A stretch of 64,000 nucleotides of DNA from Candidatus Xianfuyuplasma coldseepsis (GTDB lineage Bacteria; Bacillota_I; Bacilli_A; Izemoplasmatales; Izemoplasmataceae). The notes below the pieces were generated by a model that had not been told where the DNA came from, made no database searches, and worked only from the letters and a program-made list of their open reading frames with translations. Both the position numbers and the translations under genes were made by a program. The stretch lies in assembly GCF_014023125.1 (NCBI RefSeq), contig NZ_CP048914.1, forward strand, positions 708,698-772,697. The letters run 5' to 3'. Each line of letters opens with the position of its first letter. The stretch's first letter is position 1. Of the stretch, positions 2,352-21,772 are shown piece after piece.

Positions 2352-3335
2352 ATGAAAGCAATGTATTGCCCCAAATATGGCGGCCCAGAAGTATATAGAC
2401 TAATGGATGTTGAACAACCAATACCATCCGAGAACGAGATTCTTGTTGAAGTCTATAGAAGCATCGTCTCCCCAACGGATGTGAATTTCCGTTCTGGTAA
2501 ACCATTTGTCGCTCGTTTATTTAGCGGACTGACAAAACCGAAGAAGACCATTCATGGAGAAATGTTTGTTGGCAAAGTCGTTCAAGTTGGTAGTGGTGTT
2601 ACAGAATTTAAAGTAGACGATCTGGTGTATGGTACCAACGGAATGAAGCTTGGAGCGTATGCAGAATATGTCGCAGTTGATACAAAAGAAGCCATCAAGA
2701 AAGTTCCAAATGATATCAAGTATAAAGATGCCCTTCCACTATTGGATGGAGGTATAACCGCATTACCTTTTCTGAGGGAACTCGCAAAAGCGAAAAAAGG
2801 AGATACTGTTTTAATTAATGGTGCTTCTGGGGCTGTTGGTTCCATGGCTGTTATGATTGCAAAGCACCTTGGATGCCATGTAACCGGTGTATGTAGTACC
2901 AACAATGTAGAGGCTGTTATGAATGTAGGTGCTGATGAAGTGATTGATTATACCAAAGAGGATTTCACACAAAATAAAAACACCTATGATATAATTTTTG
3001 ATACCGTAGGGAAAGCATCCTACTCGAAAGCCAAACAAGCCCTCACTGAACATGGTCTCTTTATAACTACTGTGCCTACACCAGGAATCATGCTTCAAGC
3101 ATTATTCAAAAAGAACAGTACCAAACGAAGAGCTAGTTTCATGGCTGCGGGTTTACGAAAACCAGCACAAAAAATCAGTGATCTTGAGTACCTCGAAGAA
3201 CTTATCCGTAACAACGAATTAACACCATTACATGGTAACGAGTATCCATTATCAAAACTAGGTGAAGCTCAAACCTATGTCGAAACAGGTCACAAAGTGG
3301 GAAATGTAACAGTAATCGTAAAAAAAGAAGCCTAA
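2352..3335 (+). CDS. Zinc-binding/MDR-superfamily NAD(P)H quinone oxidoreductase or alcohol dehydrogenase
   Basis: 327 aa. The Rossmann motif GASGAVGSMAVMIAKHLG is present and the overall architecture is MDR-like. Confidence 0.75.
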   Translation: MKAMYCPKYGGPEVYRLMDVEQPIPSENEILVEVYRSIVSPTDVNFRSGKPFVARLFSGLTKPKKTIHGEMFVGKVVQVGSGVTEFKVDDLVYGTNGMKLGAYAEYVAVDTKEAIKKVPNDIKYKDALPLLDGGITALPFLRELAKAKKGDTVLINGASGAVGSMAVMIAKHLGCHVTGVCSTNNVEAVMNVGADEVIDYTKEDFTQNKNTYDIIFDTVGKASYSKAKQALTEHGLFITTVPTPGIMLQALFKKNSTKRRASFMAAGLRKPAQKISDLEYLEELIRNNELTPLHGNEYPLSKLGEAQTYVETGHKVGNVTVIVKKEA

Positions 3336-3355
3336 AATAGGCTTCTTTACTTTAT
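3325..3355. terminator. Rho-independent terminator hairpin (AAGAAGCCT-loop-AGGCTTCTT) overlapping the oxidoreductase stop codon
   Basis: A 9-bp perfect stem followed by a T-rich tract (tactttatatt). A near-identical copy occurs at 4734-4763. Confidence 0.6.
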
Positions 3356-3403
3356 ATTGTTCCTAGAATAAGTGGGTGAAAAACCATCCATTCGGTCTCT
3401 AGA

Positions 3404-3955
3404 TCAAATAGTTACTTTTTTGATGGAAACGAAGTGAAAATATGAATTAAACTCTTGATACAAAAAGGTCTCTTGATAATCCACTTCTAAACAGTGCTTT
3501 GATTTCGTAATAATTTCATTCAAATGCTTAACTCTAAAACCACTCTCTTGTACAATGAGAACGAATCGCGCGTTATTCTTCATCTTATCGATAATTCGAT
3601 TAATGGACCTTGTTTCCTCGGCAATATCGTTTTTATAAAAATGAAACATCGAATTCATTAAAATGATATCGTATTCTTGGAAACTCGCAAAATCTTTATA
3701 ATCTGTGACTTCACCAACGACATCTAATTTCTCTTTCGTTGCGATCTCATTTAATTGATTGATTCCAACATCGGATATATCTATTCCTCTTACAGAAAAT
3801 CCCATACGACCTAACTCTAGAGTATCCCTCCCTTGTCCACAACCTACATCTAATATCATACTCGATCGATCAAATCGATCAAAATAACGTATTAATTCAG
3901 GATATGGTTTTCCAAAATAATTAGCCTTTTTATAGTACTTATTATATGAAGACAT
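3404..3955 (-). CDS. Class I SAM-dependent methyltransferase, TehB-like
   Basis: Motif ILDVGCGQGRDTLELGRMGFSVRGIDIS, compared with the TehB signature LDLGCGNGRNS. The start was moved to the internal ATG at 3955 (MSSYNKYY), which has a GGGAG RBS. The ORF-track extension to 4162 runs over the tRNA-like remnant. Confidence 0.6.
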   Translation of the reverse strand: MSSYNKYYKKANYFGKPYPELIRYFDRFDRSSMILDVGCGQGRDTLELGRMGFSVRGIDISDVGINQLNEIATKEKLDVVGEVTDYKDFASFQEYDIILMNSMFHFYKNDIAEETRSINRIIDKMKNNARFVLIVQESGFRVKHLNEIITKSKHCLEVDYQETFLYQEFNSYFHFVSIKKVTI

Positions 3956-5207: not shown

Positions 5208-6290
5208 ATGAAAAAGACGACATCCTTCAATAAAGATTTGTTTAAAAAAAGTTTAGTTAATAGTTTAAGTAATTATAAAGAGGGTTCTAAACAACAAGTA
5301 GAGCGCACTCCTAAGTATTCTACTGGAATAATTCCTTTGGATGATTTACTTGAAGGTGGTTTCCCAATGGGAAGCATAGTTGGCTTTGGTTCAGAAGCCG
5401 GTGTAGGAAAAACAACCATACTTTTACAAGCTTGTGCAAACATTGTTAAGAAGTACAACAAGACTGTTTACTACATTGATGTTGAGAATGGAGCAAAACT
5501 AGACTTGATCTACAAAATGGAATACACAGATATGTTGTACCATCCTGAATCAAATCCAGAAGGCAGGTTTTATCTACTATCATTCAAAACTATACAAGAC
5601 ATTGTGAGTTTTATTAACCAGGCTGCGAAAGGTCAAGATACTGCCGTAATTGTAATTGATTCTGTAACACAAGTTGTGGATGAAGAATCCAAAGAGAAAG
5701 ATGATTTGGATGTATCTAATAAACAAAAGGGAAAAATCGCAACAATGTGGTCTAAAGCATCAAGAGCTTTGAACACTATTATCGGTGACTCTGACATTAG
5801 TCTAATCATGGTTCATCAAGCAAGACAAAAACTAAACGACTTCAACCCTAAAACCACTTCTGCTGGTGGGAATGCTCTAAAACATATCACCTCAGTTGAG
5901 TTATGGGCAAAAAAGGGGAAATACATAAACGAGAAATATGTAACAGTTGACAAGGCGTCAAACTCAATAGGTTTCAATGTTAAACTTCAGAGTTTGAAGT
6001 CTAGATGTGGAGATTCGGACTCTTCAAGAAATCTAGTACTTTTCAAGGGTAAAGGCGCTGTTAATGTTTTTGCTGTAAAGGAATGGCTTGAAGAGTATCA
6101 GTATTATGATAAAAAGAAAGAGGAATACATCCCGTACTTCACTAAAAACGACCCTTGGAAGACATACAACATTCCTCAGTTAAGTATCTACATTAAGGAG
6201 AGATCTTATACAAAAATTCTTGAGCAGCTAAACTACCATAGAGATGAACTTATTCCATATGTTATACAACAACTCGAATCAAATTGGTAG
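5208..6290 (+). CDS. RecA-superfamily (KaiC/RadA/DnaB-C-like) ATPase
   Basis: Walker A GFGSEAGVGKTT, followed by YYIDVE and Walker B-like VIVIDSV. Strong RBS AAAGGAGAAGG. Confidence 0.6.
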   Translation: MKKTTSFNKDLFKKSLVNSLSNYKEGSKQQVERTPKYSTGIIPLDDLLEGGFPMGSIVGFGSEAGVGKTTILLQACANIVKKYNKTVYYIDVENGAKLDLIYKMEYTDMLYHPESNPEGRFYLLSFKTIQDIVSFINQAAKGQDTAVIVIDSVTQVVDEESKEKDDLDVSNKQKGKIATMWSKASRALNTIIGDSDISLIMVHQARQKLNDFNPKTTSAGGNALKHITSVELWAKKGKYINEKYVTVDKASNSIGFNVKLQSLKSRCGDSDSSRNLVLFKGKGAVNVFAVKEWLEEYQYYDKKKEEYIPYFTKNDPWKTYNIPQLSIYIKERSYTKILEQLNYHRDELIPYVIQQLESNW

Positions 6291-7135: not shown

Positions 7136-7471
7136 TTAGACTTCGTTAGCTCCATCAATGTACTTGTCATAATCGATGTCTTTGGTTTTATCAAGACTGA
7201 TAAAAGTAACCTTATCAGCTACAACTGTTAAGTCTTTTACGATGATCTCTAAGTGTGCCTTAACTCCGATCATGCTTCCAACCTCGATATGTTCTTTAAT
7301 AGCATTTGATAAATGCCTAGATAGTCTTACATTAATCTCATCAGTGTGGTTTTCTGTTTCGTTTACATTAGTAACCAACAACGAGATTAATAACTCTTCA
7401 GGATTTCCAGCACTAGTAACAAAGTCATATATACCAGTAACCTTACCTACCAAAATGACTTGATTCAACAT
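7136..7471 (-). CDS. SSB-like OB-fold protein (short)
   Basis: The N-terminus MLNQVILVGKVTG... resembles the SSB start (MxNxVxLxGRL). The start was set at the ATG with an AAAGGAG RBS. The track ORF begins at an upstream TTG. Confidence 0.45.
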   Translation of the reverse strand: MLNQVILVGKVTGIYDFVTSAGNPEELLISLLVTNVNETENHTDEINVRLSRHLSNAIKEHIEVGSMIGVKAHLEIIVKDLTVVADKVTFISLDKTKDIDYDKYIDGANEV

Positions 7472-7559
7472 GGAAATCAACTCCTTTCAACTATAGTTGA
7501 TGTATTAAGTATAACCGGTTAAGCGCCTAAATGCAGCCCTAAAATAGAAAAAGATGATA

Positions 7560-8234
7560 CTATTGAACTGTATCATCTGTATTCTCTGTATTTGACTTCT
7601 TAGGTGATTTTATTTTCTTGATTGTCACTTTCACTATGTTTTGTAGAACCAGAAAATCTTGTTTGACATCTGTCTTTATTACATCTAGAGTTAAGTATCC
7701 TTTACGAACCAGTACTATTGTTACTACACCACTACCTGTTATCGAAATCCAAAAGAATGATAGGAAGATATAATGAGAGCCAAGTAAATCCCATCTAGTA
7801 ACTTCAATGAATGAAGCATAATGATCGTTGGTATAAAATAACTGCTCACTTGAGAAAACAAATCGCTCAGCACCAACATCATCTGTTGTGGCATTGATAT
7901 ATGCTTCAGTATATGAATATCCGTCTGGTAGTAAAACTGGATCTCTAGTATTGTCGTATACAGCATAAACTGTTACATCGTATTCCCCAGGAGCAACTCC
8001 TTGTGACTTAGGCACGTAATTGCTAGGCAATTCATCATACTCTAGTATATACATTGCGACATGATCATAATCAGTATATGTTTTATAACGTCTAGCATTC
8101 ACATCTGTACTCATTGACATAATTAACAGAAAAAGTACCACAGGAAGGAAAATGTATCTTATCCTTCTTCTAAATGACTCTTGTTCTAAACTTAAAAGAA
8201 ACTTGTCTATACTATCTCTAATCTTCTGATTCAT
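7560..8234 (-). CDS. Membrane protein: N-terminal TM, a roughly 120-aa extracytoplasmic domain, and a C-terminal TM plus Lys-rich tail
   Basis: 224 aa. Hydrophobic segments IFLPVVLFLLIMSMS and IFLSFFWISITGSGVVTIVLV. Its start overlaps the upstream gene by 17 nt. Confidence 0.5.
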   Translation of the reverse strand: MNQKIRDSIDKFLLSLEQESFRRRIRYIFLPVVLFLLIMSMSTDVNARRYKTYTDYDHVAMYILEYDELPSNYVPKSQGVAPGEYDVTVYAVYDNTRDPVLLPDGYSYTEAYINATTDDVGAERFVFSSEQLFYTNDHYASFIEVTRWDLLGSHYIFLSFFWISITGSGVVTIVLVRKGYLTLDVIKTDVKQDFLVLQNIVKVTIKKIKSPKKSNTENTDDTVQ

Positions 8235-9420
8235 CCACTTTATCCATAAGGAACTTTACAGCAGATGTAACTGAGTTCAAATTGAATCTATGATTACTAT
8301 CATATGCATTTGGGATACTGAACACTGCTCCAGCATCAAGTAGTACTTTAGCAATAGCAAGTCCATCTTCAAAATTCACTTCTTCTAAGGCTAGATCTAG
8401 AGATTTCTTATCAACTATGTTGATCAATGCTTTGACAGCCATCAAGTCGTTTGCTTTTACTGCATCAATGATTCCATTGGACATCTGATGTTTGTTAAGA
8501 TTCATATTAGATACTCTATCTTGAACGTATGCTCGATCATTAATTTTCAAGAGATTCTCAACAGTCTTTAGATCATAGTTATCATATAGGAACTTAGCAC
8601 ACTCTGTAGCCTCATAATTAATCGCAAAGTCAAACATGTCCTTGTTCACATTATATTTGCTTCTATCGAGGAAGTACTTAAGAATATGTACTACATCTTT
8701 CTCTATTGCAACCTGAACTAGTTTAGGGACACCCCTGTCTCCCATTCTCACTAATCTTAATTCGGGAATAAGTTTTAATGTCTCGTCATTGGTACAAGCT
8801 AGAACGGCAGAAACGTATTCCTTCATATTCTCTGAGAGGTTTGCATACATGGGTAAAATTTTCTTACCTATTCTTAGCGAACCGCTTCTCTCTGATAATC
8901 TAGGTATCTCTAATTTACCATGATGATAACTAACAACATTGCCTTCTTCATCTTTTATCGGAGTACGGAAACTCGACTGTAGTAATTTCAAATCGTTGTT
9001 CTTAATAAGAAATGCAACAAATCGAGGATTGTTATTCAGTGACTCAATGATAAGTTGTTTAGAAAAGAGAAATTTGAATTTCTCTAAATCGTTACTCTCA
9101 ATACAATAGTCTAATAATGTCTTACCATTACTATCAGGCTGTTCAGGAGCCAAATCTGGATTGATTTTATCAATGTCTTGGTTATAAAACTTGCTTAACA
9201 TTGTTTCTCGCTCTGAACCAGCATATAGGATGTCATCCACTTTTACATCTAGAAACTCTGCAATCATCATTAGGTTCGAGATCTCAAATGAACTCTTACC
9301 ACTTAAATTCTGAGATACTGCTTGTTTGGATATACCAAGATAATCAGCCAAATTCTCTTGTGTATGTCCCTTTAATCTGAGTTGCTCTTTGATAAATTTT
9401 CCAATTTCAACTGTGTTCAT
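8218..9420 (-). CDS. XRE-family HTH protein with a large alpha-helical (possibly ankyrin-like) C-terminal domain
   Basis: The HTH is GHTQENLADYLGISKQAVSQNLSGKSSFEISNLMMIAEFL. Ankyrin-like segments include GLAIAKVLLDAGAVF. The start was set at ATG 9420 (MNTVEIGKF), 7 nt after AGGAGG. The track ORF starts further upstream. Confidence 0.6.
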   Translation of the reverse strand: MNTVEIGKFIKEQLRLKGHTQENLADYLGISKQAVSQNLSGKSSFEISNLMMIAEFLDVKVDDILYAGSERETMLSKFYNQDIDKINPDLAPEQPDSNGKTLLDYCIESNDLEKFKFLFSKQLIIESLNNNPRFVAFLIKNNDLKLLQSSFRTPIKDEEGNVVSYHHGKLEIPRLSERSGSLRIGKKILPMYANLSENMKEYVSAVLACTNDETLKLIPELRLVRMGDRGVPKLVQVAIEKDVVHILKYFLDRSKYNVNKDMFDFAINYEATECAKFLYDNYDLKTVENLLKINDRAYVQDRVSNMNLNKHQMSNGIIDAVKANDLMAVKALINIVDKKSLDLALEEVNFEDGLAIAKVLLDAGAVFSIPNAYDSNHRFNLNSVTSAVKFLMDKVDESED

Positions 9421-9445
9421 TTTGATTCCTCCTTTTGATAACTTC

Positions 9446-9474
9446 ATTATAGTCAAGTTGTGATTTATTTGTAA
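9446..9474 (-). promoter_or_regulatory. Promoter (TTACAA-17-TATAAT, minus strand) for the HTH/membrane gene pair
   Basis: The -10 is 9446-9451 and the -35 is 9469-9474, both read on the minus strand, about 20 nt upstream of the RBS. Confidence 0.45.
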
Positions 9475-9668
9475 GCAACTAATAGTTAATTTCTCCTTTA
9501 CAATATAAAAATGATACATAGTAAAGTAAACCACTCATTAACTTTCTTTTACTTAAGCGGTATTAAGACTATGTATCAAACTATTTCGGAAGTAAATTAC
9601 CCCTTATTTTTATTTTATCATTTTACAAAATAAAGTATAACAAAAATTTTCAAATGTCTCTTCTTGTT

Positions 9669-10766
9669 TTAGAATGGCAGATCATCTTCCGACACTTCAA
9701 TATAAACAGGTTTCTTTTCATTAATACGTACTTCAAGTAGTTTGTTTTGAAAAGAATGTATTAATGCATCCAATAATTCTTCATTTTTGTCTTTCAATGC
9801 TTCGTATATTTTATTTAAAACTTTGATATCTTCAACAGGAATTCCAACATTGCATTTAACTTTTATATCTAAGGAATCAAAAAGATCTTCAGCTCTAACA
9901 GAATGTTCAAACCAATTCCTTTTTATCAATATGTTTAGATTGTCTAAAATCTCTTTAATTGATGCAATACTAAATTCATTATAGACATTAAATCGGGGTT
10001 CAAAATGAACATCTCCATTCCAAATTTCTAATCTATCATAAAATATACTTACCATACTATCTAAAGCCTGTTGTCTCAACTCATCATAATTAATCTCTGG
10101 TTTAGTTTTATCTAAAGGAGATTCTTCGATGGAATCTTTGTTTTCTTCATCGTAATCAATGGTTATTTGAAGTTCTTTCTCTAGCTTATTAAGCTGCCCT
10201 CCATCTATTATTGACATTGAAAAATTAGTTTCATCTAGAAACTCAGTTTTCAAAGCATTAGAGTTGTTTAGAAATCCTTTGTCGGATGTTATAAAGTATA
10301 GGTTTTGATATTTCTTCATTTCAAAGTACTCTAGAAGACTAATCCATATCATACTATCTTTAAAACCTTTGTCGCTTGCATTCTCATTGCTGTTGAAAGG
10401 TGGTAACTTATATCGATCTCTTTCAAGTAACTTGTCAAGCATCTTTTTCTTATTGTAGCTGATAACTTTATCCTTAAAATGATGATCAATATATTTATCA
10501 AGTGACTTCTCATAAAGTATTATCTTGTCTTCAAGATTTACTTTATTATTTATCTCAACATACTCTACTAACTCTTCTTTTAGTACCTCTATTTTTTCAT
10601 AAGATTTTTTTATGTCTCTTGCTTTAATGTTCTTAATCTCTTTAACAACAATTTCAGGGACAAAAACATCATATTGTTTTTTACACTCTACTATAAATCT
10701 TGTTATGTAATTGTCCTTTCGTTGTTCTATTAGAAAATTTGTATCTATTACAATAGCATTTTCCAT
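9669..10766 (-). CDS. PIN-like nuclease domain protein (N-terminal PIN-like, roughly 190-aa uncharacterised C-domain)
   Basis: An N-terminal IVIDTNFLI acidic motif, and a later FITSDKGF motif typical of the last PIN strand. 365 aa. Confidence 0.5.
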   Translation of the reverse strand: MENAIVIDTNFLIEQRKDNYITRFIVECKKQYDVFVPEIVVKEIKNIKARDIKKSYEKIEVLKEELVEYVEINNKVNLEDKIILYEKSLDKYIDHHFKDKVISYNKKKMLDKLLERDRYKLPPFNSNENASDKGFKDSMIWISLLEYFEMKKYQNLYFITSDKGFLNNSNALKTEFLDETNFSMSIIDGGQLNKLEKELQITIDYDEENKDSIEESPLDKTKPEINYDELRQQALDSMVSIFYDRLEIWNGDVHFEPRFNVYNEFSIASIKEILDNLNILIKRNWFEHSVRAEDLFDSLDIKVKCNVGIPVEDIKVLNKIYEALKDKNEELLDALIHSFQNKLLEVRINEKKPVYIEVSEDDLPF

Positions 10767-10865
10767 TATATCTCTCCATCCAAGCCTAATTTAAGTATTT
10801 TCATAAACCAGTTCAATCGTTTCACAATGTACTAGTCTTATGAATTTATACTACCTAGCCTTCTT

Positions 10866-11327
10866 CTATTTTCTTTTCACCCATTTTGCCTCACCCTTTT
10901 TTTTAAAGAGTGTAATAAAATATGATTCAACTGCCGGTGCCATCCAATGTGGTTCTATCAAAAAAGATTTATAATATACAAACCTACTAGGAATTGGCAA
11001 AGTCATTATATAGTCATAGATTTTCTTTATGCAAGATTTTGTTTTTGCTTGAGTGTTTTGCACAATGTGAGACTTGATACGTGTGTTAATACCCTTTTTA
11101 TTTTCCTTCTTACCAATATATTGACACCTACCAAGGTTATCAAATATAAAATAGATGTTATTAGAAGAAGGTTCCAAGACCTTTGTATCTTTTCGTTTCA
11201 ATACTTGGTATCTTTTTGGTTTGTTGTAAACCATTCTTTTGAATTTAGATGGATTTTGAATGTCGTTTTCGATTGTGTCGAGAACGTTCTTTATACATGC
11301 AAAACCACTGAAATTGTAATCGGCCAT
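10866..11327 (-). CDS. Small GIY-YIG-like nuclease domain protein
   Basis: NIYFIFDNLGRCQYIGKKENKKGINTRIKSH matches the GIY-x9-YIG-x8-R-x3-H layout. A downstream ESYFI glutamate is present. RBS GAGGT. Confidence 0.5.
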   Translation of the reverse strand: MADYNFSGFACIKNVLDTIENDIQNPSKFKRMVYNKPKRYQVLKRKDTKVLEPSSNNIYFIFDNLGRCQYIGKKENKKGINTRIKSHIVQNTQAKTKSCIKKIYDYIMTLPIPSRFVYYKSFLIEPHWMAPAVESYFITLFKKKGEAKWVKRK

Positions 11328-11346
11328 AAACTACCTCTTCTTAATA

Positions 11347-12162
11347 CTAAAAATCTGCACTTATATGTGAAAGAGAAATTATTTTGGTTAGCAACAAATC
11401 AATAGACTCCTCTTTATACTTTCTTTCTTTCGACCAGTCTCTAATCTTCTTTATGAGAATTTCAATATCGCTTTTATTATCAACAATAATATATTCAATA
11501 TCTTTAATATCAAGTTTTAACTTGAAGGCACTTTTTAAGTCATCACGAATATCTTTGTTGAACAGGTTCATCTGTTCTTCCCAAATGAACAAACTTTTGC
11601 CTGTCGTATCTTCAAACACATTCTTATTCGGTACGAATCTCCATTCATTTTCTAGATAGTACCTAGTAACCTTATCATCTTTCCTGATTATCATTGGTTT
11701 TGAATAAGTTTTCATCAATCTTAGGTAGTTTAGAGCATTTGTTTGTAGATATAAAGAATCTCCATCTAGTACCTCTTTAGACATTTGATATTCTCTTGAA
11801 TCTGTCACTTTTGCCACCAATAATCTCATCTCAGTGTATATAGGCATCTCTGAGCTATAATACCAAAGTGGGGTCAACCCATTATGCAAACCCCAAGATT
11901 GCTTCATTCCAATGGCAATTCCACCATATTTTGTTTTGTGTTCTTTTATGCTTGTTAATGGGATATCACAAAAGCATACCATTGGGAAGGTACTCGATCC
12001 TAGTTCATCTATTAATTCAGAATCAAATAATTCTTCCTCAAACCCAAATAAATCATCAATTTGTTCTTTATTATAGAAGGGTATAAATCCATGTTCTAAA
12101 ATACTTATAATAGTGTCTATATCTCTTGTAAAATGAAACAATGAGTTAGTTTTATAAGCCAT
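11347..12162 (-). CDS. AbiGi-like abortive-infection family protein (tentative). Its start overlaps the hsdR stop.
   Basis: The N-terminus [29 protein letters not shown] resembles the AbiGi family N-terminus as I recall it. ATG 12162 is preferred because it has a GAGGT RBS. It overlaps the hsdR 3' end by about 11 nt. Confidence 0.4.
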
Positions 12163-15100
12163 ATTGTACCTCATTTTCACACACCAATTCAGTTTGTTCC
12201 ATAATCAATTTCACTGATCGATCGTAGTTGTTTGGGTCTGTTGGATCATCTGGTGGATACTTGTATTTCTTAAGTAGCACTTTGATTTCGAATCTCATTT
12301 TAGCTCTAACTGAATCTCTAATGTTCCAGTCTACGGTAGTGCTTGCTTTAATTTTAACAGTTAGCTCTTTGGCAATATCTTTGAGGACATCAATACCCAT
12401 TACCTCTTGAGCCTTGATGTTTGATGCAAGTGCTTGATAGAATGCATATTCATCTTCAGTGAGTCCAGATTCTTTACCAGCTTCAGCAGCTTTAGTAATA
12501 TCTTTTGCTAAGGCTATCAATTCTTCAATGACTATAGTAGAATCAATAAGTCTCTTGTGATATTTAGCTAGGGAATCCTCTAACATTTCAGAGAACAATC
12601 TTGACTGAACCACTGTTTTGCGTGAAAATGCTCTGATCTTACCTTGGATAAGACGTTTGAGAAGTTCAACTGCAACATTCTTATGATCCATGTTCTTGAA
12701 CTCTTCTAAGAACTCATCTGATAGGATAGAGATATCAGGTTTAGCTAAACCTATTTCAGACATAATATCTATAACCTTGTCAGATTTTAAGGACTTAGAA
12801 ATCAATTGATTCAACTCTCTATCGAGTTGGTCTCTTGATTTCTTTTTATTGTTATCAGTAGTAAGTTTGATAATTCCCGCTCTTACAGACTTATAGAAAC
12901 CTATCTCAACATTGTGCTTCTCTGCTGTTTCAGTAGTAGCACAAAGAGAGTAAGCTTTTGTGAGTTCTGAAGTTAGTTTGATATAATCTTCTTTTCTCTT
13001 AATCGATAAACCAACAATATAGTCTATTGTAGCCATAATGATTTTGAGTTTATCTGTCTGTCTACCTTTGAAATATAGAGAGTAGTCGAACCCATGAAGT
13101 AATTCTCGCACCAGTTCCAGTTTCTCCATCATAACAGAAACAGCTAGTTCTGTATCTACTCCAGTTTGTTCTCTATCACTATCTGTATATTGAGATAGAG
13201 CTTTTTTAAGACTTTCTGCAATACCTATATAGTCAACAATAAGTCCACCTTGTTTCTCTTTAAACACACGATTCACTCGTGCGATTGCTTGCATTAAGTT
13301 ATGTCCTTGCATAGGTTTATCAACATACATGGTATGTAAACTTGGAACATCAAATCCTGTAAGCCACATATCACGTACTATTACGAGTTGTAGTTCATCG
13401 TCATTGTCTTTCATACGTCTAGATAATGTATCTCTAGTTTGTTTATTACCGATATGTGTTTGCCAATGCTCAGGATCTGAAGAACTACCTGTCATAACGA
13501 CTTTTATTTTACCTTTCATCAACTCATCTGAAAGCCAATCAGGCCTTAGTGCAATAATTGCATCATGTAGTTCAACAGCAATTCTACGACTCATAGCTAC
13601 GATCATACCTTTTCCAACTTCGGTTTCCATAGAAGCTTGACGTTTTTCAAAATGTTCTACAAGATCTTTAGCTACAACCTTAATTCTAGGTTCAGCTCCA
13701 ACAATTGCTTCTAACCGTGCCCATTTACGTTTGAGACCTTCTTTTTGGACATCTTCTTGGTATTCGGTTATATCATCATAATTCTCATCTATAAGCTCGT
13801 ATTCTTCAGTGAAGTCAATTCTCGCTATGCGGCTTTCGTAGTAGATTTTAACGGTTGTTCCATCTTCCACTGCACGGGTCATATCATAGACGTCAATATA
13901 GTCTCCAAAGACTGCTCTTGTGTTCTTGTCAGTAGTTTCTATTGGTGTACCAGTAAAACCAATATATGAGGCATTTGGAAGGCTGTCACGCATGTGTTTG
14001 GCATAGCCATACTTCTCATATGCCTCTTCTTTTGTTTTTACAACTTCAGCTTTAAAACCATACTGGCTTCGATGTGCCTCATCAGCCATAACAATAACGT
14101 TCTTACGTTCTGTTAAAGGTGTCACTAACCCTTCTTCGTTAGGAGCAAACTTATGTATAGTAGTAAAGATGATACCTCCTGAATCTCTACCATCTAATAG
14201 TTCTTTTAGATGGTCTCTTGATTCTGCTTGTTGTGGATAGGAACGTAATAAATCTTTTGACTTAGAGAACGTAGAGAACAATTGATCATCTAGATCATTT
14301 CGATCTGTTATTACAACAATAGTTGGATTTGATAGTTCTTGTGAGATTACCATCTTACCAGCATAGAAGACCATAGATAGTGATTTACCACTACCTTGTG
14401 TATGCCATATAACTCCAATACGTCTATCCCCATCTTCACTAGTAGCAGTATAAGTGCTTTCTAATGCAGTATTCACAGCATGGTACTGATGGTATCCAGC
14501 TAATATCTTATTGTAGTCATTGTTGTTCTCTTGGAACAAGATGAACTGTTTGATAATATCCATAAAGATATCTTTACGGAACATACCTTTTAGTAAGGTT
14601 TCTAGTTGAGGTAATACTTTAGGAGCAATATTAATACCATCTATTGTACGCCAAGACATATACCATTCTTCATTTGAAGTAATCGTACCAGCTTTAGCTA
14701 CGTGTCCATCACTAATAACATTGAATGCGTTGTAGACAAATAAATTACTAATAGATTTTTGATAGTTCTTGATTTGTCTGTAAGCATGATGAACTGTCAC
14801 CTTCTCATCCGAAGGTGTTTTAAGTTCGAAGACAACCAATGGTAAACCATTGACAAAAAGAACTATATCAGGACGTTTTTCAACTCTGTTCTCAACAACA
14901 GTGAATTGATTCACAGCAAGGAAGTCATTGTTCTCAATATTCTCAAAGTCAAAGAGTTGGATGTTTGGATATACTGTGCTTCCATCCTCTTCTTTATGTA
15001 GGACAGTAACTCCCTCATTAATCATCTTATGAAAGGCATGATTATTAGCAATCAAAGATACTTGTTTAGGAATGGTGATCTCTCTAATCGCATCTTCAAT

Positions 15101-15304
15101 GACTTGTCTTGGAACTGTATCATTAATACGAAGAAGCGCTTCTCGTAAGCGCTCAATTAATATTACTTCTTCATATGAATCCCTTTCAGGATATTCCCCG
15201 TCAAATGAGATATTAGGACCAAACTCAATATTGTATCCTAATTCTTCTAGCCACTGTAAAGCAGCTTCCTCTACATCCGACTCATAAAATACTTTTACTC
15301 CCAT
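12152..15304 (-). CDS. hsdR: Type I restriction enzyme R subunit (HsdR)
   Basis: About 1050 aa with a DEAH box ([10 protein letters not shown]) and SF2 helicase motifs. Operon position after hsdM/hsdS. ATG at 15304 with a GAGGGG RBS. The track start at 15319 is a TTG. Confidence 0.9.
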
Positions 15305-15308
15305 TTCA

Positions 15309-16634
15309 TCACCCCTCAATAGGTACTTCTATCTCTCCACTCATTAGTTTTGGTAATAGTGTATCTCTAGTTATGGTTAACACTTCATTCTCTTTACCAT
15401 TCTGCTGTATTTGTTCATAAGTATCCAAATAAAAACTAGCTAGTCTGTCTATCCATTCTTTGTTTGGGATTACAATCTTGTATTCATTCAATATAAACTT
15501 CAAATCAAAATTCTTTATTCCAGTAGTCCCATTCTCATAATTGAAGAAAACATTATTGTTATACAAGTATTCAAAAGTAAGACTTATATAAGGTGATAAA
15601 TTTATGTCTTTTGGCTCAATAGCTCTACAAAAATTAGTGCATATAACCTTATCATTATATCTATGTATAAATTCTTTTGATATCAAAGCTGTTCTACCAG
15701 TCGACTGTTTAGGACTTCCCCCCGATATCTCAACTACTATATCTCCAGCTTTCAATTTCTTCTTGAGAAAGTTCTTATTAAGTATATATCTGGTTGGGCA
15801 TTTTCCTTTATCCCCAACTTTGATTGAGTTTATATCTGCACCTCTAATACACACAACTTCAGAAGTATAGTTACCAGTTATTGCTTCTTTACCCCAGTCA
15901 CCTGCAATCGTTGTAGCTACAAGATCTCCTAGACTCCCGACTTCCCATCCTCTAGGAATTAATCCCAAGTCACTTTCTATCATTTCTCCACCACTAGATT
16001 TATATGGTTCTCCATCTTCATTAGGATACTCAAAATCAACAAACCATTGTTTATATAATGCTTGTGCCATTTCTTCAAGGTTCTTATTGATTTTGTTGTT
16101 AAGTTCTATTTTGTCATCAAGTGATGATAAGATGTTTGATATTGTTTTTTGTTCCGCTAAAGGTGGTAAAACAACATTAATATTTTTAATGTTTTTTATA
16201 GGTAATTTTGCTTGTACCGCCCCTACAGTTCCCATTCTAATTTCTTGAATACCATTGGGTGAGTTCAAGTAATAATAAAGAAATCTATAGTCAATTTTCT
16301 CAGAATGATTTGTTAATTTAACGCAATTTTCTGTCAAACTTGCATTATCCAATGTTTTACCTACTATACCCGTTAAACCTATAGTCCCAACTATGGATAA
16401 TAGTACATCTTTATAATTAGTAATGTACCGTGAAATATTACTAAATGTCTCCTCAATAATATATTGAATCCCATCAAATTTCTCAAGTTTTGTAATATTA
16501 TTCAAATCTCGCACACGAATATATGGATGTGTAGTTTTATAATCTACTAAAGAATGTCCTTTAGGTAATCTCTTCCCGCCCTTTATCTCAACTATTTCTT
16601 CTAATTTTACATTTCTCCAATCATCATAACTCAT
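15309..16634 (-). CDS. hsdS: Type I R-M specificity subunit (HsdS), two TRDs
   Basis: Conserved central [14 protein letters not shown] and C-terminal LLPKLMSGE motifs. Overlaps hsdM and abuts hsdR. Confidence 0.9.
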
Positions 16635-18111
16635 AACCTATTCCCCTTAAGTTCTCCTTGATTTTTTCCTCAAGAGATTTAGATTCTTCAAATAGGTCTG
16701 ATAATTCTGAAGTAAGTCTATCCATTTTCTCTTCAAATGGAATACCATCATCTTCCTCTTCTTCAATACCTACATAACGTCCAGGAGTTAAAACATAGTC
16801 ATGTAACTTAATTTCTTCAATTGTAGATGATTTGCAGAATCCATCAACATCTTCATAATTTTCTTCATTTTTCCAATTATGGTAAGTAGTGTAGATTTGT
16901 TCTATCTCTTCATCTTTTAATTCTCTATGTTTTCGCGTTTCCATATATCCCATTTTACGAGCATCTATAAATAATACTTTATCTTTTCTACCGTTCTTAT
17001 TTTTGGAAACAAACCATAAGGATACAGGAATAGCCACATCATAGAATAGTTGTGAAGGCATAGCTACAATACAGTCTACTAATCCTTCTTCTAGGATTGA
17101 TTTACGGATATCGTACTCCTCACTTCTTGATGTTGATAAAGAACCATTAGCTAAAACAAATCCAGCAGTACCTCTTGGACTTAATTTACTTATCATATGT
17201 GAAATCCATGCATAGTTCGCATTTGTTTTTGGTGGAACTCCCCATTTCCATCTAACATCATCTAATAAATGAGGTTGTCCCCAGTCTTTAATATTAAAAG
17301 GTGGATTGGCTAATATATAATCTACTTTCAATGTTTTATGTTGATCGTTAGTAAATGTATCTCCATCTCTTTCACCAAGATTTGCATCAAGTCCTCTGAT
17401 TGCAAGATTCATTTTTGCTAGTCTCCATGTAGTAGCTACATATTCTTGTCCGTAAATTGAGATATCACCAAGTCTACCTTGATGTTCTTCAACAAACTTT
17501 GCAGATTGCACAAACATACCACCACTACCACAACAAGGGTCATATACTCTACCTTTATAAGGTTCAATCATATTTACTAATAATTTAACAATACTGGGTG
17601 GTGTATAAAACTCACCTTCCGTACTACCAAACTTCTTAAGGAAGTACTCATATACTCTACCTAACACATCTTTAGCTCTTGCTTCCTTACTTCCTACGTT
17701 AAAAGAGAATAGGTCTACCAACTCACCTAATCGTGTCTTATCTAGAGCTGGTCTTGCATAGTTCTTAGGTAAGACATTTTTTAATGGAACATTCTCACGC
17801 TCAATAAGGATCATTGCATTATCGATTACTTGTCCGATAGTAGGTTGTTTCGCTTGTGACTTAATATAATCCCATCTAGCTTCTTTCGGTACGAAGAATA
17901 CATTCTCAGACTCGTATGCATCTCGATCTTCTTCCATACCAGGATAGACTTGCTTCACTTCGTTATATCGTTCTTCAAAGGAATCAGAGATGTACTTCAA
18001 AAAAACAAGCCCCAATATAACGTGTTTATATTCAGAGCTTTCAATATTACCCCTTAACTTATCTGCCATTTCCCACAGTTTATTCTCGAATCCTAAATTT
18101 ACTTTTGCCAT
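16624..18111 (-). CDS. hsdM: Type I R-M N6-adenine DNA methyltransferase (HsdM)
   Basis: NPPFN catalytic motif and the HsdM N-terminal domain. 495 aa. Confidence 0.9.
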   Translation of the reverse strand: MAKVNLGFENKLWEMADKLRGNIESSEYKHVILGLVFLKYISDSFEERYNEVKQVYPGMEEDRDAYESENVFFVPKEARWDYIKSQAKQPTIGQVIDNAMILIERENVPLKNVLPKNYARPALDKTRLGELVDLFSFNVGSKEARAKDVLGRVYEYFLKKFGSTEGEFYTPPSIVKLLVNMIEPYKGRVYDPCCGSGGMFVQSAKFVEEHQGRLGDISIYGQEYVATTWRLAKMNLAIRGLDANLGERDGDTFTNDQHKTLKVDYILANPPFNIKDWGQPHLLDDVRWKWGVPPKTNANYAWISHMISKLSPRGTAGFVLANGSLSTSRSEEYDIRKSILEEGLVDCIVAMPSQLFYDVAIPVSLWFVSKNKNGRKDKVLFIDARKMGYMETRKHRELKDEEIEQIYTTYHNWKNEENYEDVDGFCKSSTIEEIKLHDYVLTPGRYVGIEEEEDDGIPFEEKMDRLTSELSDLFEESKSLEEKIKENLRGIGYEL

Positions 18112-18128: not shown

Positions 18129-18488
18129 CTATTTATATACTTCCCTTAAAGATTTTCCTTTGCTATTTACTATTTCATCCCATGCTTTTGTAGTTATGTA
18201 CCCTAAAAAAATACATGCAGCTCTATTGGGTGATGAAAAAACCTCATCAGTTTGTAATTCGTAATAGTTTTGATCATACTCTTGAAGAACCCCTTTGTTT
18301 AGTAAATCTCTTCTTGAGCGTTCAATCCAATTACAGTCAGTCCATTTTTTAGTAATTATAGGTTCTCTTTTCATCAAGGAGCCTTTATGTACTATAACTT
18401 CATTATCTTTACCTTTGGTTTCTCCCGTACCTATATAACTTATAGTAGCAATTAACATACCTTTGTTATTTTTTAGATAAAAATCCAC
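18129..18488 (-). CDS. Small protein leading the hsd operon, DUF4357-like (tentative)
   Basis: 119 aa. The C-terminal VFSSPNRAACIFLGYITTKAWDEI resembles, from memory, the DUF4357 motif seen upstream of hsdM genes. GTG start with a GGTGGTGAG RBS. Confidence 0.4.
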   Translation of the reverse strand: MDFYLKNNKGMLIATISYIGTGETKGKDNEVIVHKGSLMKREPIITKKWTDCNWIERSRRDLLNKGVLQEYDQNYYELQTDEVFSSPNRAACIFLGYITTKAWDEIVNSKGKSLREVYK

Positions 18489-18528
18489 TTAACTCACCAC
18501 CATCTTATTCAGGTTCTTTTCAATTAAA

Positions 18529-18557
18529 ATTATATCAAAAAATGAACGTAAGTTAAA
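18529..18557 (-). promoter_or_regulatory. Putative promoter of the hsd operon (extended -10 TGaTATAAT on the minus strand, weak -35 TTTAAC)
   Basis: Reverse complement ...TTTAAC-17-TATAAT, about 40 nt upstream of GTG 18488. Confidence 0.35.
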
Positions 18558-18706
18558 TAGCTAGTATAAATGAATAATTGCAAGTCTGCAGAAACGTCAT
18601 TGTTAAGCCATCTATCCATTAAATCCCTATCGAAACCTTCCGTATACCAAGATCAGACTGGATTACATATATACTATAGAGTCTGAAAGCTATCTCAAAT
18701 ACGGCA

Positions 18707-18735
18707 TGGACAAACCTGATCCTGCCGCGTATAAT
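18707..18735 (+). promoter_or_regulatory. Promoter TGGACA-17-TATAAT directed toward the serine recombinase gene (about 130-nt leader)
   Basis: -35 at 18707-18712 and -10 at 18730-18735. Confidence 0.45.
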
Positions 18736-18869
18736 GTGGTACACAAATGAAATAAACCACTAATTTTTGCCCTCTCAATTATACTGAGCATTAATTAGTG
18801 AATTAATTCTAATTTGTTGTTGAGTGCACTATAAAAGGATAAATGCACACCATAAAGGAGGGTATCTAA

Positions 18870-19430
18870 ATGAGAATAGGATATATGAGAGTATCAACAG
18901 TCGCTCAAAACTTAGATACACAGAAAGCGGCTCTGGAATCATATGGAGTAGAAAGAATCTTTGAAGAGAAAGCGTCTGGAAGAAACATTGAAAGACCAGT
19001 CCTTAAGGAGTTGCTTAAGTTCATCAGATCAGGGGACACGCTTGTAATATATGATTTATCTAGACTGGGTAGGACAGTACATCAAGTTGTAAAATTATTA
19101 GATGACTTCATAAAAAGAAACATTGGTTTCGTATCGCTTAAGGAATCACTGGACATAACCACACCGATGGGTAAAGCAATGGCACACATAATTGCAGTGT
19201 TTAATCAAATGCAAGTGGATGTTCAAAATGAAAAGACTAGAGAAGGACTACTAATCGCAAAAGCAAATGGTAAAAAACTTGGGAGAAAAGCCATTACTCA
19301 AGATAAGATTCTAATGATACAAGCATTATGTAAAGAAGGGTATTCGAATCAAGAAGTTGCAGATAAATTAGGAGTCTCAAGAAGAACTGTAATTAACTAC
19401 AAGAAGGGCTCTAAACAGATAAAAAACTAA
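18870..19430 (+). CDS. Small serine recombinase (resolvase/invertase family)
   Basis: MRIGYMRVSTVAQNLDTQ N-terminal catalytic motif (S10), and a C-terminal HTH (GYSNQEVADKLGVSRRTV). 186 aa. Confidence 0.85.
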   Translation: MRIGYMRVSTVAQNLDTQKAALESYGVERIFEEKASGRNIERPVLKELLKFIRSGDTLVIYDLSRLGRTVHQVVKLLDDFIKRNIGFVSLKESLDITTPMGKAMAHIIAVFNQMQVDVQNEKTREGLLIAKANGKKLGRKAITQDKILMIQALCKEGYSNQEVADKLGVSRRTVINYKKGSKQIKN

Positions 19431-19446
19431 TGTTGAGGTGTAAACT

Positions 19447-19716
19447 ATGGACGAAGATAAAAGAGCATTTCAGGCTAGTGAAAATCAGCTGCTATATAAA
19501 AAAACTTTAAGTTCAGACAACTTCATTATTGATCAAATAAAACAAGCATATCTATTAAGTCTTCCATATCTACCTATGGATTCCTTAGAAGAGTCTGAGA
19601 AGATCGCTTCATTGTTCGATTTATTGAAGAGGAACATGGCTTATAAGAAGGGGTTAATGGATCAGACTGTTAGTCTTATTACTGAGGATGCATTTAATGA
19701 ATGGTTCAAAACTTAA
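19447..19716 (+). CDS. Hypothetical small protein (89 aa) co-transcribed with the recombinase
   Basis: An RBS GAGGTG 6 nt upstream. No motif. Confidence 0.4.
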   Translation: MDEDKRAFQASENQLLYKKTLSSDNFIIDQIKQAYLLSLPYLPMDSLEESEKIASLFDLLKRNMAYKKGLMDQTVSLITEDAFNEWFKT

Positions 19717-19749
19717 AACAATGCTTAAAACTAAAAAAGATGGGCACTA

Positions 19750-20196: not shown

Positions 20197-20229
20197 ATAA
20201 TCTCACCTCATCTAAATTATAACATCCTA

Positions 20230-21683: not shown

Positions 21684-21772
21684 GTAATACATAAAAATGG
21701 TATGTACTAGCGGTCATTTCAAGACTAGAGCAAATAAAAAAGCAAACCTAATGGCTTGCCTAAGCTCTTAAG

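Follow-up and report, generated by a model that had tools for sequence, protein, structure and literature searches.

A PIN_12 protein from a genomic island of Candidatus Xianfuyuplasma coldseepsis carries a conserved C-terminal module with an SSB-like tip

The 365-residue PIN protein encoded on the minus strand at 9669..10766 of the window, by which we mean the whole 64,000-nucleotide stretch of Candidatus Xianfuyuplasma coldseepsis DNA analysed here, joins an N-terminal PIN_12 (formerly DUF4935) domain to a C-terminal part that forms a conserved and portable module and whose end is an SSB-type C-terminal tip, a feature that an earlier note on this DNA had missed. Judged by its sequence, the end of the protein is the signature of the SSB C-terminal tip, and this is our main result. 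The SSB tip is among the most conserved protein-docking peptides of bacteria, and phage recombination and replication proteins depend on it. A nuclease family and sister kinases that bear such a tip point to a simple, portable coupling of an effector to the SSB interactome, which could serve either to bait phage proteins or to deliver the effector to single-stranded DNA intermediates.

The C-terminal module and its SSB-type tip

Past the nuclease domain, the chain runs through an acidic, disordered inter-domain linker (residues 201-224; 10095..10166, minus strand), which varies in length and sequence among the aligned homologs and has pLDDT values below 50 at residues 206-223. The C-terminal half is a separate, conserved alpha/beta domain (residues 225-347; 9726..10094, minus strand), predicted with pLDDT above 90, in which R231 is invariant and a G, F259, Y321, F335 and N344 are near-invariant. 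The earlier note had found no recognisable family for this part of the protein, and none has emerged: the domain has no relative in PDB, BFVD, Pfam or PHROGs, and the C-terminal ~165 residues are uncovered by any Pfam, NCBIfam, PADLOC or PHROG model and by any PDB sequence. A short, flexible spacer (residues 348-359; 9690..9725, minus strand), variable in its alignment columns and with pLDDT below 50 for residues 352-361, leads from the domain to the tip.

The tip itself, EDDLPF-COOH (residues 360-365; 9672..9689, minus strand), was delimited from the alignment, family counts and codons. The tip peptide of the window protein reads KPVYIEVSEDDLPF, and its last ten residues, IEVSEDDLPF, match the Gram-positive SSB consensus IDISDDDLPF by identical or conservative residues. 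L363, P364 and F365 are invariant, and each of the 29 homologs in the alignment has a terminal DD[DE]LPF-like tip. The tip is strictly coupled to the C-domain, being present, as acidic-acidic-acidic-[L/I/V/M]-P-F, on 40 of the 41 full-length homologs as against none of the 12 PIN_12 proteins with another C-terminal half. Among the family representatives, 131 of 150 end in [LIMVF]P[FYW]; the family logo is acidic at positions -6, -5 and -4 (68, 74 and 87%, respectively) and hydrophobic at -3 (98%), followed by P-F, and the last ten residues carry a mean net charge of -3.1. All four proline codons, both phenylalanine codons and all three stop codons are in use at the tip, and this variation of synonymous and stop codons places the selection on the peptide. 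An overlapping DNA-level signal behind the conservation was ruled out, since these codons vary freely. No other ORF with such an ending was found in the ~1 Mb of homolog loci and the window.

Bacterial SSB likewise carries (D/E)3-(L/I/P)-P-F-COOH on a disordered segment, as DDDIPF in E. coli, as DDDLPF / IDISDDDLPF in S. aureus and B. subtilis (PMC5531588) and as DDEPPF in mycobacteria (PMC3575820), and within one genome a C-terminal LPF is almost exclusive to SSB (PMC5143411). In its succession of a folded domain, a disordered spacer and a conserved tip, the window protein mirrors SSB. However, the spacer is ~12 residues long, compared with the 40-60-residue linker of SSB, and the carrier in this family is a nuclease or a kinase rather than an OB-fold protein; the window protein has no OB fold, with no match to the SSB Pfam family and nothing found by phmmer with the E. 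coli and B. subtilis OB domains. In the limited library covered by our literature search, no paper connects an SSB-Ct-like tip with DUF4935/PIN_12 or with any defence protein, so such a publication may exist elsewhere.

The module is portable and has been reused on kinases. The same domain and tip occur on two divergent Ser/Thr kinases (P0107 and P0197), and the kinase versions occupy the same niches as the nuclease, one of them lying 14 nt after hsdS. Among PIN_12 proteins, the C-domain and tip are confined to one subfamily, the other C-terminal halves being unrelated. A stand-alone C-domain, P0094, has a PPF tip and is encoded on DNA of ~45% GC that is not actinobacterial, and it therefore lends no support to a co-variation of tip and host SSB. 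Run with the C-domain profile, a word-index search turned up just four proteins, all of them stand-alone C-domains, and is uninformative on architectures, which we took from an exhaustive search of the family representatives.

The PIN domain and its relatives

The nuclease domain (residues 1-200; 10167..10766, minus strand), delimited by its Pfam match, an AF2 model, Foldseek and the 29-sequence alignment, has a VapC-like core with a long helical insert at ~38-97. Pfam PIN_12 (PF16289) matches residues 5-165 along its entire profile (positions 1-172/172) with 75.5 bits, the cutoff being 32 (E=8.9e-21), and is the sole recognisable domain of the 365-residue protein, PIN_4 matching at 2e-5; as PIN_12 was formerly DUF4935, the earlier note's guess of PIN_4/DUF4935 proved right. 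The PIN-type acidic motifs that the note had placed at the N-terminus are likewise present, IVIDTNFLI spanning residues 5-13 and FITSDKGF residues 158-165. In the AF2 model of the whole protein, predicted as a monomer, mean pLDDT is 84.3 and the PIN domain lies mostly at 85-95, and the best PDB matches found by Foldseek are the VapC-type PIN domains 1y82, 3zvk and 8wmm_G (probability ~1.0, target TM 0.58-0.63). D8, E43, D132, D137 and D162 are invariant among the 29 homologs (26-32% identity), the first two of them aligning with the canonical first two PIN acids, and N10 and S131-D137 (SDKGFKD) are invariant in the same alignment. By model and alignment, the predicted PIN fold is confident and its acidic catalytic set is intact.

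VapC toxins provide the closest solved folds (1y82, 3zvk, 6nkl and 3tnd), although VapC is ~130 residues long, whereas the window protein, at 365, has an extra helical insert and the C-terminal module. Furthermore, VapBC has an adjacent VapB antitoxin, while the window protein has no VapB-like neighbour and its homologs no conserved partner. The description of PIN_12 by Matelska et al. 2017 (PMC5499597), in the passages of that paper covered, fits the window protein closely, with proteins of ~350 residues, an N-terminal VapC-group PIN domain with a long helical insert, 4-5 conserved acidic residues, mostly monocistronic genes and a C-terminal alpha/beta region lacking a structural homolog. Those passages give the function of PIN_12 as unknown and mention neither the C-terminal tip nor embedding in restriction-modification (R-M) loci.

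The only experimentally tested PIN_12 protein that we found is Cosus (Brc24), a single-gene anti-T7 system from mobile integrons that depends on its PIN residues T12, D14 and D96, and whose mechanism is tentatively tied to genome injection, with escape mutants in T7 gp2.5 (SSB) having no effect (bioRxiv 10.1101/2024.07.02.601719). Like the window protein, Cosus is the product of a single gene and has PIN_12 as its only recognisable domain. Cosus, however, is a proteobacterial integron cassette, whereas the window gene lies in an island bounded by an integrase and tRNA genes and not in an integron; as the window protein has no tblastn match among plasmids, Cosus is probably not a close relative.

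The island and the genomic context of the family

The ORF is real, lying on the minus strand (the earlier note gave no strand), starting with ATG and ending in TAA at 9669-9671, and the ORF list and its translation give a complete gene for the PIN_12 domain and C-terminal module together. A Shine-Dalgarno-like GGAGAG, read from the sequence, lies 5 nt upstream of the ATG (10772..10777, minus strand), and an identical database protein is named 'PIN domain-containing protein [Candidatus Xianfuyuplasma coldseepsis]' at NCBI. Upstream are HsdM/HsdS/HsdR, AbiGi and, 99 nt away, a 153-aa ORF without a family; downstream, an HTH_3 protein overlaps a 224-aa protein with two TM-like segments. The gene thus stands between an R-M/Abi block and an HTH-membrane pair, as the earlier note had described, with flanking gaps of 99 and 134 nt, and no window neighbour recurs at the 66 homolog loci. 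It lies 1.4 kb downstream of hsdR, outside the hsd operon and not between hsdS and hsdR. The island is real, its boundaries being marked by a resolvase (18870-19430), a tyrosine integrase (20451-21683) and tRNA-Trp/Tyr (21773-21935). A promoter and terminator scan around the gene gave counts no different from those in shuffled sequence and is therefore uninformative on transcription units.

Elsewhere, the context of the family is that of defence islands and R-M loci. Type I R-M genes lie within 10 kb at 18 of 52 GTDB loci, and in 10 loci (8 GTDB and 2 metagenome) the gene has hsdS on one side and hsdR on the other, frequently at distances of -4 to +21 nt. Defence families prevail in the neighbour census, which shows no conserved partner; the commonest are HsdS, HsdR, Fic/DOC (PDC-S04/SoFic), TIR/ThsB, AbiJ, Mrr and protein kinase. 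About two thirds of the loci have no Hsd gene within 10 kb; among them are a prophage, an island next to Cas13a and loci where the gene stands alone. A minority of the homologs are solitary genes amid metabolic ones (L004). Defence genes are enriched among those embedded in R-M loci (bioRxiv 10.1101/2024.01.29.577857), and the recurrent hsdS-hsdR position recalls PrrC / RloC, Ronin, TgvAB and the 'guilt-by-embedding' candidates, all of them R-M-linked or embedded, although most members of the present family are not R-M-linked. The likeness to PrrC / RloC also extends to a latent nuclease beside a Type I R-M system, but these have an ABC-ATPase N-domain and an anticodon-nuclease C-domain, neither of which Pfam or PADLOC detects in the window protein.

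The earlier note's reading of a PIN-like defence nuclease is supported: a PIN fold is predicted, with VapC-type domains as its nearest structures, and homologs sit mainly in defence or mobile contexts rather than housekeeping ones. The anti-phage function itself we infer. Phmmer searches with the AbiGi, 153-aa, HTH_3 and 224-aa proteins of the window found none of them beside the 66 homolog loci, which rules out a multi-gene system with any of the four.

The family is tiny and patchy, with 228 clusters (50% identity) in a set of 1.84 billion proteins. Tblastn searches of INPHARED phages and PLSDB plasmids with the window protein gave no match, and IMG/VR holds only 3 full-length members, which rules out a mainly phage or plasmid gene. 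None of the families in PADLOC-DB v2.0.0 matches the protein at E<=10, and it is a candidate single-gene defence that PADLOC misses.

Possible roles of the tip

We favour, tentatively and short of calling it probable, a model in which the protein is a single-gene defence nuclease whose SSB-tail mimic acts as a bait or docking peptide for SSB-binding proteins. In this model, the N-terminal metal-dependent PIN_12 nuclease would be the effector, and the C-terminal module would combine the family-specific alpha/beta domain, the flexible spacer and the acidic tip (D/E)3-(L/I)-P-F-COOH, the last of these copying the SSB peptide that recruits recombination, repair and replication proteins. The tip would enter a pocket of the kind that receives SSB tips, with a hydrophobic hole for the terminal Phe and a basic rim. 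The nuclease would be inert in the uninfected cell; upon infection, a phage protein that needs the SSB tip, with RecT/Red-beta/Sak-type single-strand annealing recombinases and phage replication proteins as candidates, would engage the mimic tip and the adjacent domain. This engagement may activate the nuclease, bring it to phage replication or recombination intermediates, or both, and the infection would be aborted. Phage defence, the SSB-type docking of the tip, the identity of its partner, the activation step and the nucleic-acid substrate are thus parts of the model that we infer. Phage SSAPs need the SSB C-tail (PMC13490951; PMC11846896), and phage recombinases are targeted by several defence systems (PMC11846896). 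Conversely, the lone-gene homologs amid metabolic genes and the lack of any PADLOC match count against the bait model, as does the tip in the AlphaFold monomer models, which is of low confidence (pLDDT ~45-63) and undocked. VapC-like PINs are usually RNases, a habit that suits a logic of ssDNA and SSB less obviously.

A more specific and more doubtful version of the model sees the module as an integrated decoy of a host short linear motif, through which phage SSB-docking proteins, such as RecT/Red-beta/Sak/Erf-type annealases and components of the phage replisome, would activate the fused PIN nuclease or Ser/Thr kinase. We know of no earlier peptide-motif decoy sensor in prokaryotic immunity, and if this version is true, the module would be the first, and would suggest a mechanism by which unrelated Abi systems come to target phage recombinases, a pattern noted long ago. 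Ronin is a precedent for bacterial decoy immunity (bioRxiv 10.1101/2023.04.06.535777).

The tip could also be addressed to the host. SSB tips bind the OB fold of SSB itself and drive condensates that dissolve on ssDNA. It is conceivable, if unlikely, that the tip of the window protein binds to the host SSB's OB fold in the manner of the SSB tip itself when ssDNA is absent, or binds host SSB partners, so that the nuclease is either sequestered until abundant ssDNA from phage replication or DNA damage frees it, or delivered to cut SSB-coated ssDNA. This draws on the same tip evidence as the bait model and on the known binding of tips to the OB fold and its ssDNA-sensitive condensates, and would account for the sharing of one module by a nuclease and a kinase. 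Nevertheless, in known systems the tip binds the OB fold weakly, and no SSB gene was found in the ~1 Mb of homolog loci examined; the window island does hold a 114-aa SSB-like ORF, but this lacks the tip and is not conserved near homologs. The hsdS-hsdR position in the 8 GTDB and 2 metagenome loci, the Hsd genes within 10 kb at about a third of GTDB loci, the kinase version just after hsdS and the proximity of the window gene to hsdR, together with the precedents of PrrC and Ronin, would instead suit a latent nuclease silenced by the Hsd complex and freed when a phage anti-restriction protein disables R-M, with the acidic tip contacting Hsd subunits or the anti-restriction factor. We consider this quite improbable, as most loci have no Hsd gene nearby, the unrelated AbiGi and 153-aa ORF lie between the gene and hsdR in the window, Type I operons serve in general as hotspots where unrelated defence genes insert, and the precise SSB likeness of the tip is left unexplained.

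A short acidic C-terminus with an aromatic end could have other roles, for example in autoinhibition or as a degron. LPF might be a ClpXP tag that holds down the level of the nuclease for as long as proteolysis is undisturbed, or a pseudo-substrate, the acidic tail folding into the basic PIN groove as in T7 gp2.5 or T4 gp32. In some S. mutans strains, GFP becomes a ClpXP substrate when it carries LPF alone, and SsbA/SsbB are degraded via LPF, but this recognition is strain-specific, did not occur in E. coli, S. gordonii or S. sanguinis, and could not be repeated in vitro (PMC5143411). Moreover, LPF alone would suffice for a degron, yet positions -4 to -6 are conserved as acidic; and although the negative charge of the last ten residues would suit an autoinhibitory tail, an electrostatic pseudo-substrate has no need for an invariant Pro-Phe-COOH, and AF2 does not dock the tail on the PIN domain. 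Such a role is, on balance, very unlikely. Least credible of all is an ordinary VapC-like toxin or housekeeping RNA-processing PIN without a role in immunity, the tip being a lineage-specific oddity. The VapC-type structural neighbours, the homologs amid metabolic genes and the label 'rRNA-processing protein FCF1' that one database source gives to a distant PIN_12 protein would fit this, but there is no conserved adjacent antitoxin-like gene, the protein has 2.5 times the size of VapC, so small and patchy a family does not resemble a housekeeping one, its context is dominated by defence, and the tip is under strong protein-level selection across phyla.

The tip offers a concrete, testable handle on DUF4935/PIN_12, for years listed as 'function unknown', and our results suggest that a scan of defence islands for non-SSB proteins with an SSB tip could reveal more sensors; one AbiC-family protein is already known to end in LPF. 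Were the tip only a degron or an autoinhibitory tail, it would still be a useful annotation of a conserved regulatory element.

The PIN_12 protein and its island

The gene is an ATG-initiated ORF of 365 codons running from 10766 to 9669 on the minus strand, with a Shine-Dalgarno sequence (GGAGAG) read 5 nt before the start codon. This bears out the ORF of the earlier note, and the protein contains both motifs quoted there (IVIDTNFLI, residues 5-13; FITSDKGF, residues 158-165). Of the two families that had been guessed, PIN_4 and DUF4935, the second fits best: residues 5-165 cover the entire 172-position Pfam profile of PIN_12 (PF16289, former DUF4935; 75.5 bits, E=8.9e-21, curated cutoff 32 bits), with PIN_4 a second, weaker match and no matches among NCBIfam and PADLOC models. 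An identical database protein is titled 'PIN domain-containing protein [Candidatus Xianfuyuplasma coldseepsis]' / 'DUF4935 domain-containing protein', and the gene is a member of this known, uncharacterised family.

The full-length AlphaFold2 model, built from a 29-sequence alignment (mean pLDDT 84.3), comprises a PIN domain at residues 1-200 (strands 3-7, 32-37, 155-160 and 184-188, with residues 38-97 forming a long helical insert) and another compact domain, of alpha/beta type, at ~225-347; the acidic linker between the two (206-223) and the tail (352-361) are disordered. Its top Foldseek matches in the PDB are VapC-type PIN domains (1y82, 3zvk VapC2, 8wmm_G PcrIIC1, 6nkl and 3tnd; probability up to 1.0, target-normalised TM 0.52-0.63), so that profile and predicted structure agree on the PIN fold. 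Invariant in the homolog alignment (29 sequences, 26-32% identity) are D8, N10, E43, R116, P123, F124, S131-D-K-G-F-K-D137, D162, E175 and R231. Because D8, E43, D162 and others do not vary, the canonical PIN acidic set is judged from sequence to be intact, which makes an active nuclease probable. Sequence and model together render a PIN nuclease with an intact active site very likely, although it is the activity itself that we infer.

All neighbours between 6.5 and 18.5 kb lie on the minus strand. On one side of the PIN gene are HsdM (16624-18111), HsdS (15309-16634), HsdR (12152-15319), AbiGi (11347-12180, 277 aa, PADLOC AbiGi E=1e-43) and a basic 153-aa protein without family (10866-11327). 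On the other are an HTH_3 protein with ankyrin-like repeats (8218-9534, 438-aa ORF) and a 224-aa protein (7560-8234) in which two TM-like segments flank a weak barnase-type ribonuclease match (PF00545, 2.7e-4), which confirms the position between an R-M/Abi block and an HTH-membrane pair. Intergenic gaps of 99 nt and 134 nt flank the gene; a promoter/terminator scan around it gave results at shuffled-sequence level and is uninformative on transcription units. Further out lie a 114-aa SSB-like OB-fold ORF (7136-7480, Pfam SSB 8.4e-6, no acidic C-terminal tip), then a minus-strand SHOCT protein and, on the plus strand, a 360-aa RecA/KaiC-like ATPase (5208-6290). What justifies the term island is the right edge, where tRNA-Trp/tRNA-Tyr (21773-21935) are preceded by a serine resolvase (18870-19430) and a tyrosine integrase (20451-21683) that has an HNH_3 motif at its C-terminus; this boundary region (18129-21935) also holds a DUF4357-like ORF. 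GC content is 0.31-0.32 at 8-12 kb versus 0.36-0.40 further along the window.

Within this island, the 153-aa protein begins 19 nt downstream of AbiGi, in place of a recognisable AbiGii, and the two may form a variant AbiG pair in which the partner has been exchanged. No PIN_12 homolog was found to have the 153-aa protein as its neighbour. The HTH_3 and 224-aa genes overlap by 17 nt and could encode a regulator and membrane-anchored RNase pair, the HTH_3 protein probably starting near residue 38 of its ORF. The tip-less SSB-like ORF lies ~2 kb from the tip-bearing, non-SSB PIN protein, a pairing that is not conserved near homologs.

The C-terminal domain and its SSB-type tip

Modelled alone, residues 222-365 reach a mean pLDDT of 89.3 and a pTM of 0.78. 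Matelska et al. 2017 (PMC5499597) describe DUF4935 proteins as ~350 aa long, mostly monocistronic and without an assigned function, with an alpha/beta region lacking structural homologs behind a PIN domain of the VapC group. The earlier description of the C-terminal part as having no recognisable family likewise holds, since the C-terminal half gave no BFVD match below E=0.1 and only E>=0.07 in PHROGs, and the C-domain profile only E>=0.43 against PDB sequences. Despite this, the C-domain is a real, conserved unit: among 1.84 billion cluster representatives its profile has 228 matches at E<=1e-3 (149 at E<=1e-10), and almost all of these proteins are ~350 aa long and have the domain at their very C-terminus.

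The protein ends in EDDLPF, and D-D-[D/E]-L-P-F or a close variant ends all 29 aligned homologs, with L363, P364 and F365 invariant after a spacer that varies in length and sequence. The tip is present in 40 of 41 full-length database matches (the exception being a truncated 257-aa fragment), and in none of the 12 PIN_12 matches sharing only the N-terminal half or the five distant PIN_12 proteins of named genomes. Among the 150 best representatives, 131 end in [LIMVF]-P-[FYW], the rest being mostly fragments or xPF-ended. In 150 non-redundant tails, preselected for a PF ending (which leaves 131/150 as the unbiased estimate for the three terminal residues), positions -6, -5 and -4 are acidic in 68%, 74% and 87%, position -3 is hydrophobic in 98% (L75/I12/V6/M4) and the last ten residues carry a mean net charge of -3.1. 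As the tip uses all four Pro codons (30/9/8/3), both Phe codons, five Leu codons and all three stop codons, its conservation acts on the peptide and not on DNA. Nor is it background, because across all ORFs of >=60 aa in ~1 Mb of fetched loci and the window, acidic-[LIVMFP]PF endings are confined to family members.

The resemblance is to bacterial SSB, whose tip is DDEPPF in mycobacteria (PMC3575820) and DDDIPF in E. coli; in S. aureus, B. subtilis and other Gram-positives it is DDDLPF and forms part of the consensus IDISDDDLPF (PMC5531588). The end of the window protein, IEVSEDDLPF, is identical or conservative to that consensus at all ten positions, and the shared architecture is a folded domain, then a short disordered spacer, then a conserved tip. 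Unlike SSB, the window protein has no OB fold and is therefore not an SSB itself. In AlphaFold models of both the full-length protein and the C-terminal half the tip is low-confidence, with no docking visible. Only three proteins of S. mutans UA159 end in LPF, SsbA and SsbB being two of them; the EbfC-family protein SMU.394 has this ending as well (PMC5143411).

Tip variants group by lineage: (P/S)EDIPF ends all four Treponema members (L044, L045, L052, L053), DDDIPF the Christensenellaceae members (L021, L025) and DD(G/E)IPF those of Syntrophomonadaceae and Cloacimonadota (L020, L024, L034), while most Clostridia members end in LPF.

The C-domain matches also include two mutually divergent Ser/Thr kinases, P0107 (558 aa; Pkinase 127-356, C-domain 423-558, end NDDYPF) and P0197 (515 aa, end IDLPF). 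The P0107 gene begins 14 nt after hsdS, and that of P0197 stands beside HpaII R-M, SLFN/AlbA, ASCH, SHOCT and YhcG genes. A homolog of the P0107 kinase part, a 533-aa kinase without the module, is encoded at 10547-12148 of metagenome locus L007, in a Type I R-M operon where a PIN_12 family member lies two genes upstream of it. Kinase and PIN versions share one genomic niche. The joining of one module to two unrelated effector domains is what would be expected if the module served sensing, regulation or targeting, and not if it were an integral part of the nuclease.

Stand-alone forms of the C-domain also occur (P0094, P0201 and P0058). P0094 (155 aa, end DDDEPPF; L077 10001-10468) was found in 60 assembly blocks, on contigs of up to 217 kb and ~45% GC, with short ORFs and a NucS-like gene upstream. 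It is the sole PPF-tipped member placed and does not come from a high-GC actinobacterium; it could represent the remnant of a PIN gene or a tip-bearing protein in its own right.

Genomic context of the family

One genome was scanned for each GTDB species, which gave 58 loci; the tip-bearing subfamily accounts for 52, with hosts mostly in Clostridia along with four Treponema, a Cloacimonadota, an Odoribacter, a Mucispirillum and a Tenericutes MAG. Searched by phmmer with the window's Hsd proteins as queries, 18 of the 52 loci have one or more Hsd homologs no further than 10 kb away, probably far above chance given the general density of R-M systems. In eight (L016, L028, L039, L043, L045, L055, L057, L059) the PIN gene has hsdS on its upstream and hsdR on its downstream side, and in several of these the gaps of -4 to +21 nt imply co-transcription. 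Two metagenome loci share this arrangement and read HsdM-HsdS-AbiJ-x-PIN-x-HsdR (L001) and HsdM-HsdS-PIN-KAP NTPase-kinase-HsdR (L007, the KAP-family NTPase and kinase genes spanning 9099-12148).

A census of Pfam families two genes each side in 41 loci was topped by Methylase_S (7), ResIII (6), Fic/DOC (6), HSDR_N (5) and TIR_2 (3), followed at two each by ThsB_TIR, AbiJ_NTD3, Pkinase, Mrr_cat, Macro, Eco57I and Phage_integrase. It revealed no recurrent partner gene, and none of the window's own neighbours adjoins any homolog. The Maledivibacter halophilus homolog lies near a NERD-UvrD helicase and Cas13a-Cas1-Cas2, and other homologs occupy a prophage accessory region, a mobile-element edge and, in one case, a lone position amid metabolic genes. 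Viral collections rarely contain the family: IMG/VR holds three full-length members, and none was found in INPHARED phages; PLSDB plasmids have none either.

Besides R-M genes, the commonest neighbour is HTH-Fic/DOC (PADLOC PDC-S04/SoFic), which 6 of 41 loci have no more than two genes away (L010, L012, L032 and others; alignment A3). Two PIN_12 paralog types share the L001 R-M locus, where a tip-less PIN_12/PIN_8 protein of 379 aa with another C-terminal half (2460-3599) lies just upstream of hsdM.

A proposed mechanism and its alternatives

We tentatively propose an autonomous, abortive-infection-type nuclease whose effector would be the PIN domain and whose sensor or targeting module would be the C-domain with its SSB-mimic tip. 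The tip would insert into SSB-Ct-binding pockets, and the likeliest trigger would be an annealase, a replisome component or another phage protein obliged to dock on SSB, whose binding would activate or relocate the nuclease. Phage single-strand annealing proteins depend on the C-tail of host or phage SSB (PMC13490951), as does Sak of phage 80-alpha, and phage recombinases are targeted by several unrelated defence systems through unclear mechanisms (PMC11846896). A defence role is likely, given the genomic context and the precedent of Cosus (Brc24), and the anti-phage PIN effector suggested at the outset is supported. Motif identity, selection and architecture tilt the balance slightly towards SSB-type docking by the tip, while a phage-protein bait with activation is a conjecture we consider rather doubtful. 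Cosus, a PIN_12 mobile-integron cassette, blocks T7, with protection weakened by T12A, D14A and D96A (bioRxiv 10.1101/2024.07.02.601719); it is the only PIN_12 protein for which we found functional data in the literature, and, as a plasmid search with the window protein gave no match, it is not a close relative. Defence functions are enriched among genes lying inside Type I R-M, BREX and DISARM loci, so-called 'guilt by embedding' (bioRxiv 10.1101/2024.01.29.577857), TgvAB being a further case in R-M-type loci (PMC11411939).

The tip might instead couple the protein to host SSB, either by sequestration on the OB fold until ssDNA frees it or by delivery to SSB-coated ssDNA, which we regard as improbable. 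Embedding between hsdS and hsdR recalls PrrC and Ronin, R-M-linked latent effectors triggered by anti-restriction proteins, Ronin having been put forward as decoy immunity (bioRxiv 10.1101/2023.04.06.535777). However, Hsd genes are missing within 10 kb in about two thirds of loci and the window's own gene layout differs, so that it is quite unlikely that the protein guards its linked Type I enzyme in the manner of PrrC. Marginally less credible again is a tip serving as ClpXP degron or acidic autoinhibitory tail: LPF does act as a degron in some S. mutans strains, but this recognition is strain-specific and leaves the conserved acidic positions and invariant Pro-Phe unexplained. An ordinary toxin or housekeeping PIN protein is very improbable; homologs are not mainly in housekeeping contexts, as R-M, Fic/DOC, TIR and AbiJ neighbours prevail and the kinase-version loci are also defence-type.

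As far as could be found, there is no earlier description of the SSB-type tip, of its presence on kinases as well or of the repeated placement between hsdS and hsdR, and together these features provide a directly testable hypothesis for PIN_12/DUF4935. Our literature search found no SSB-Ct-like tip on a PIN or other defence protein; one paper mentions in passing an LPF end in AFM81543, an AbiC-family protein of ~25 kDa from the S. mutans pan-genome (PMC5143411), and other abortive-infection proteins may carry SSB-like tips.
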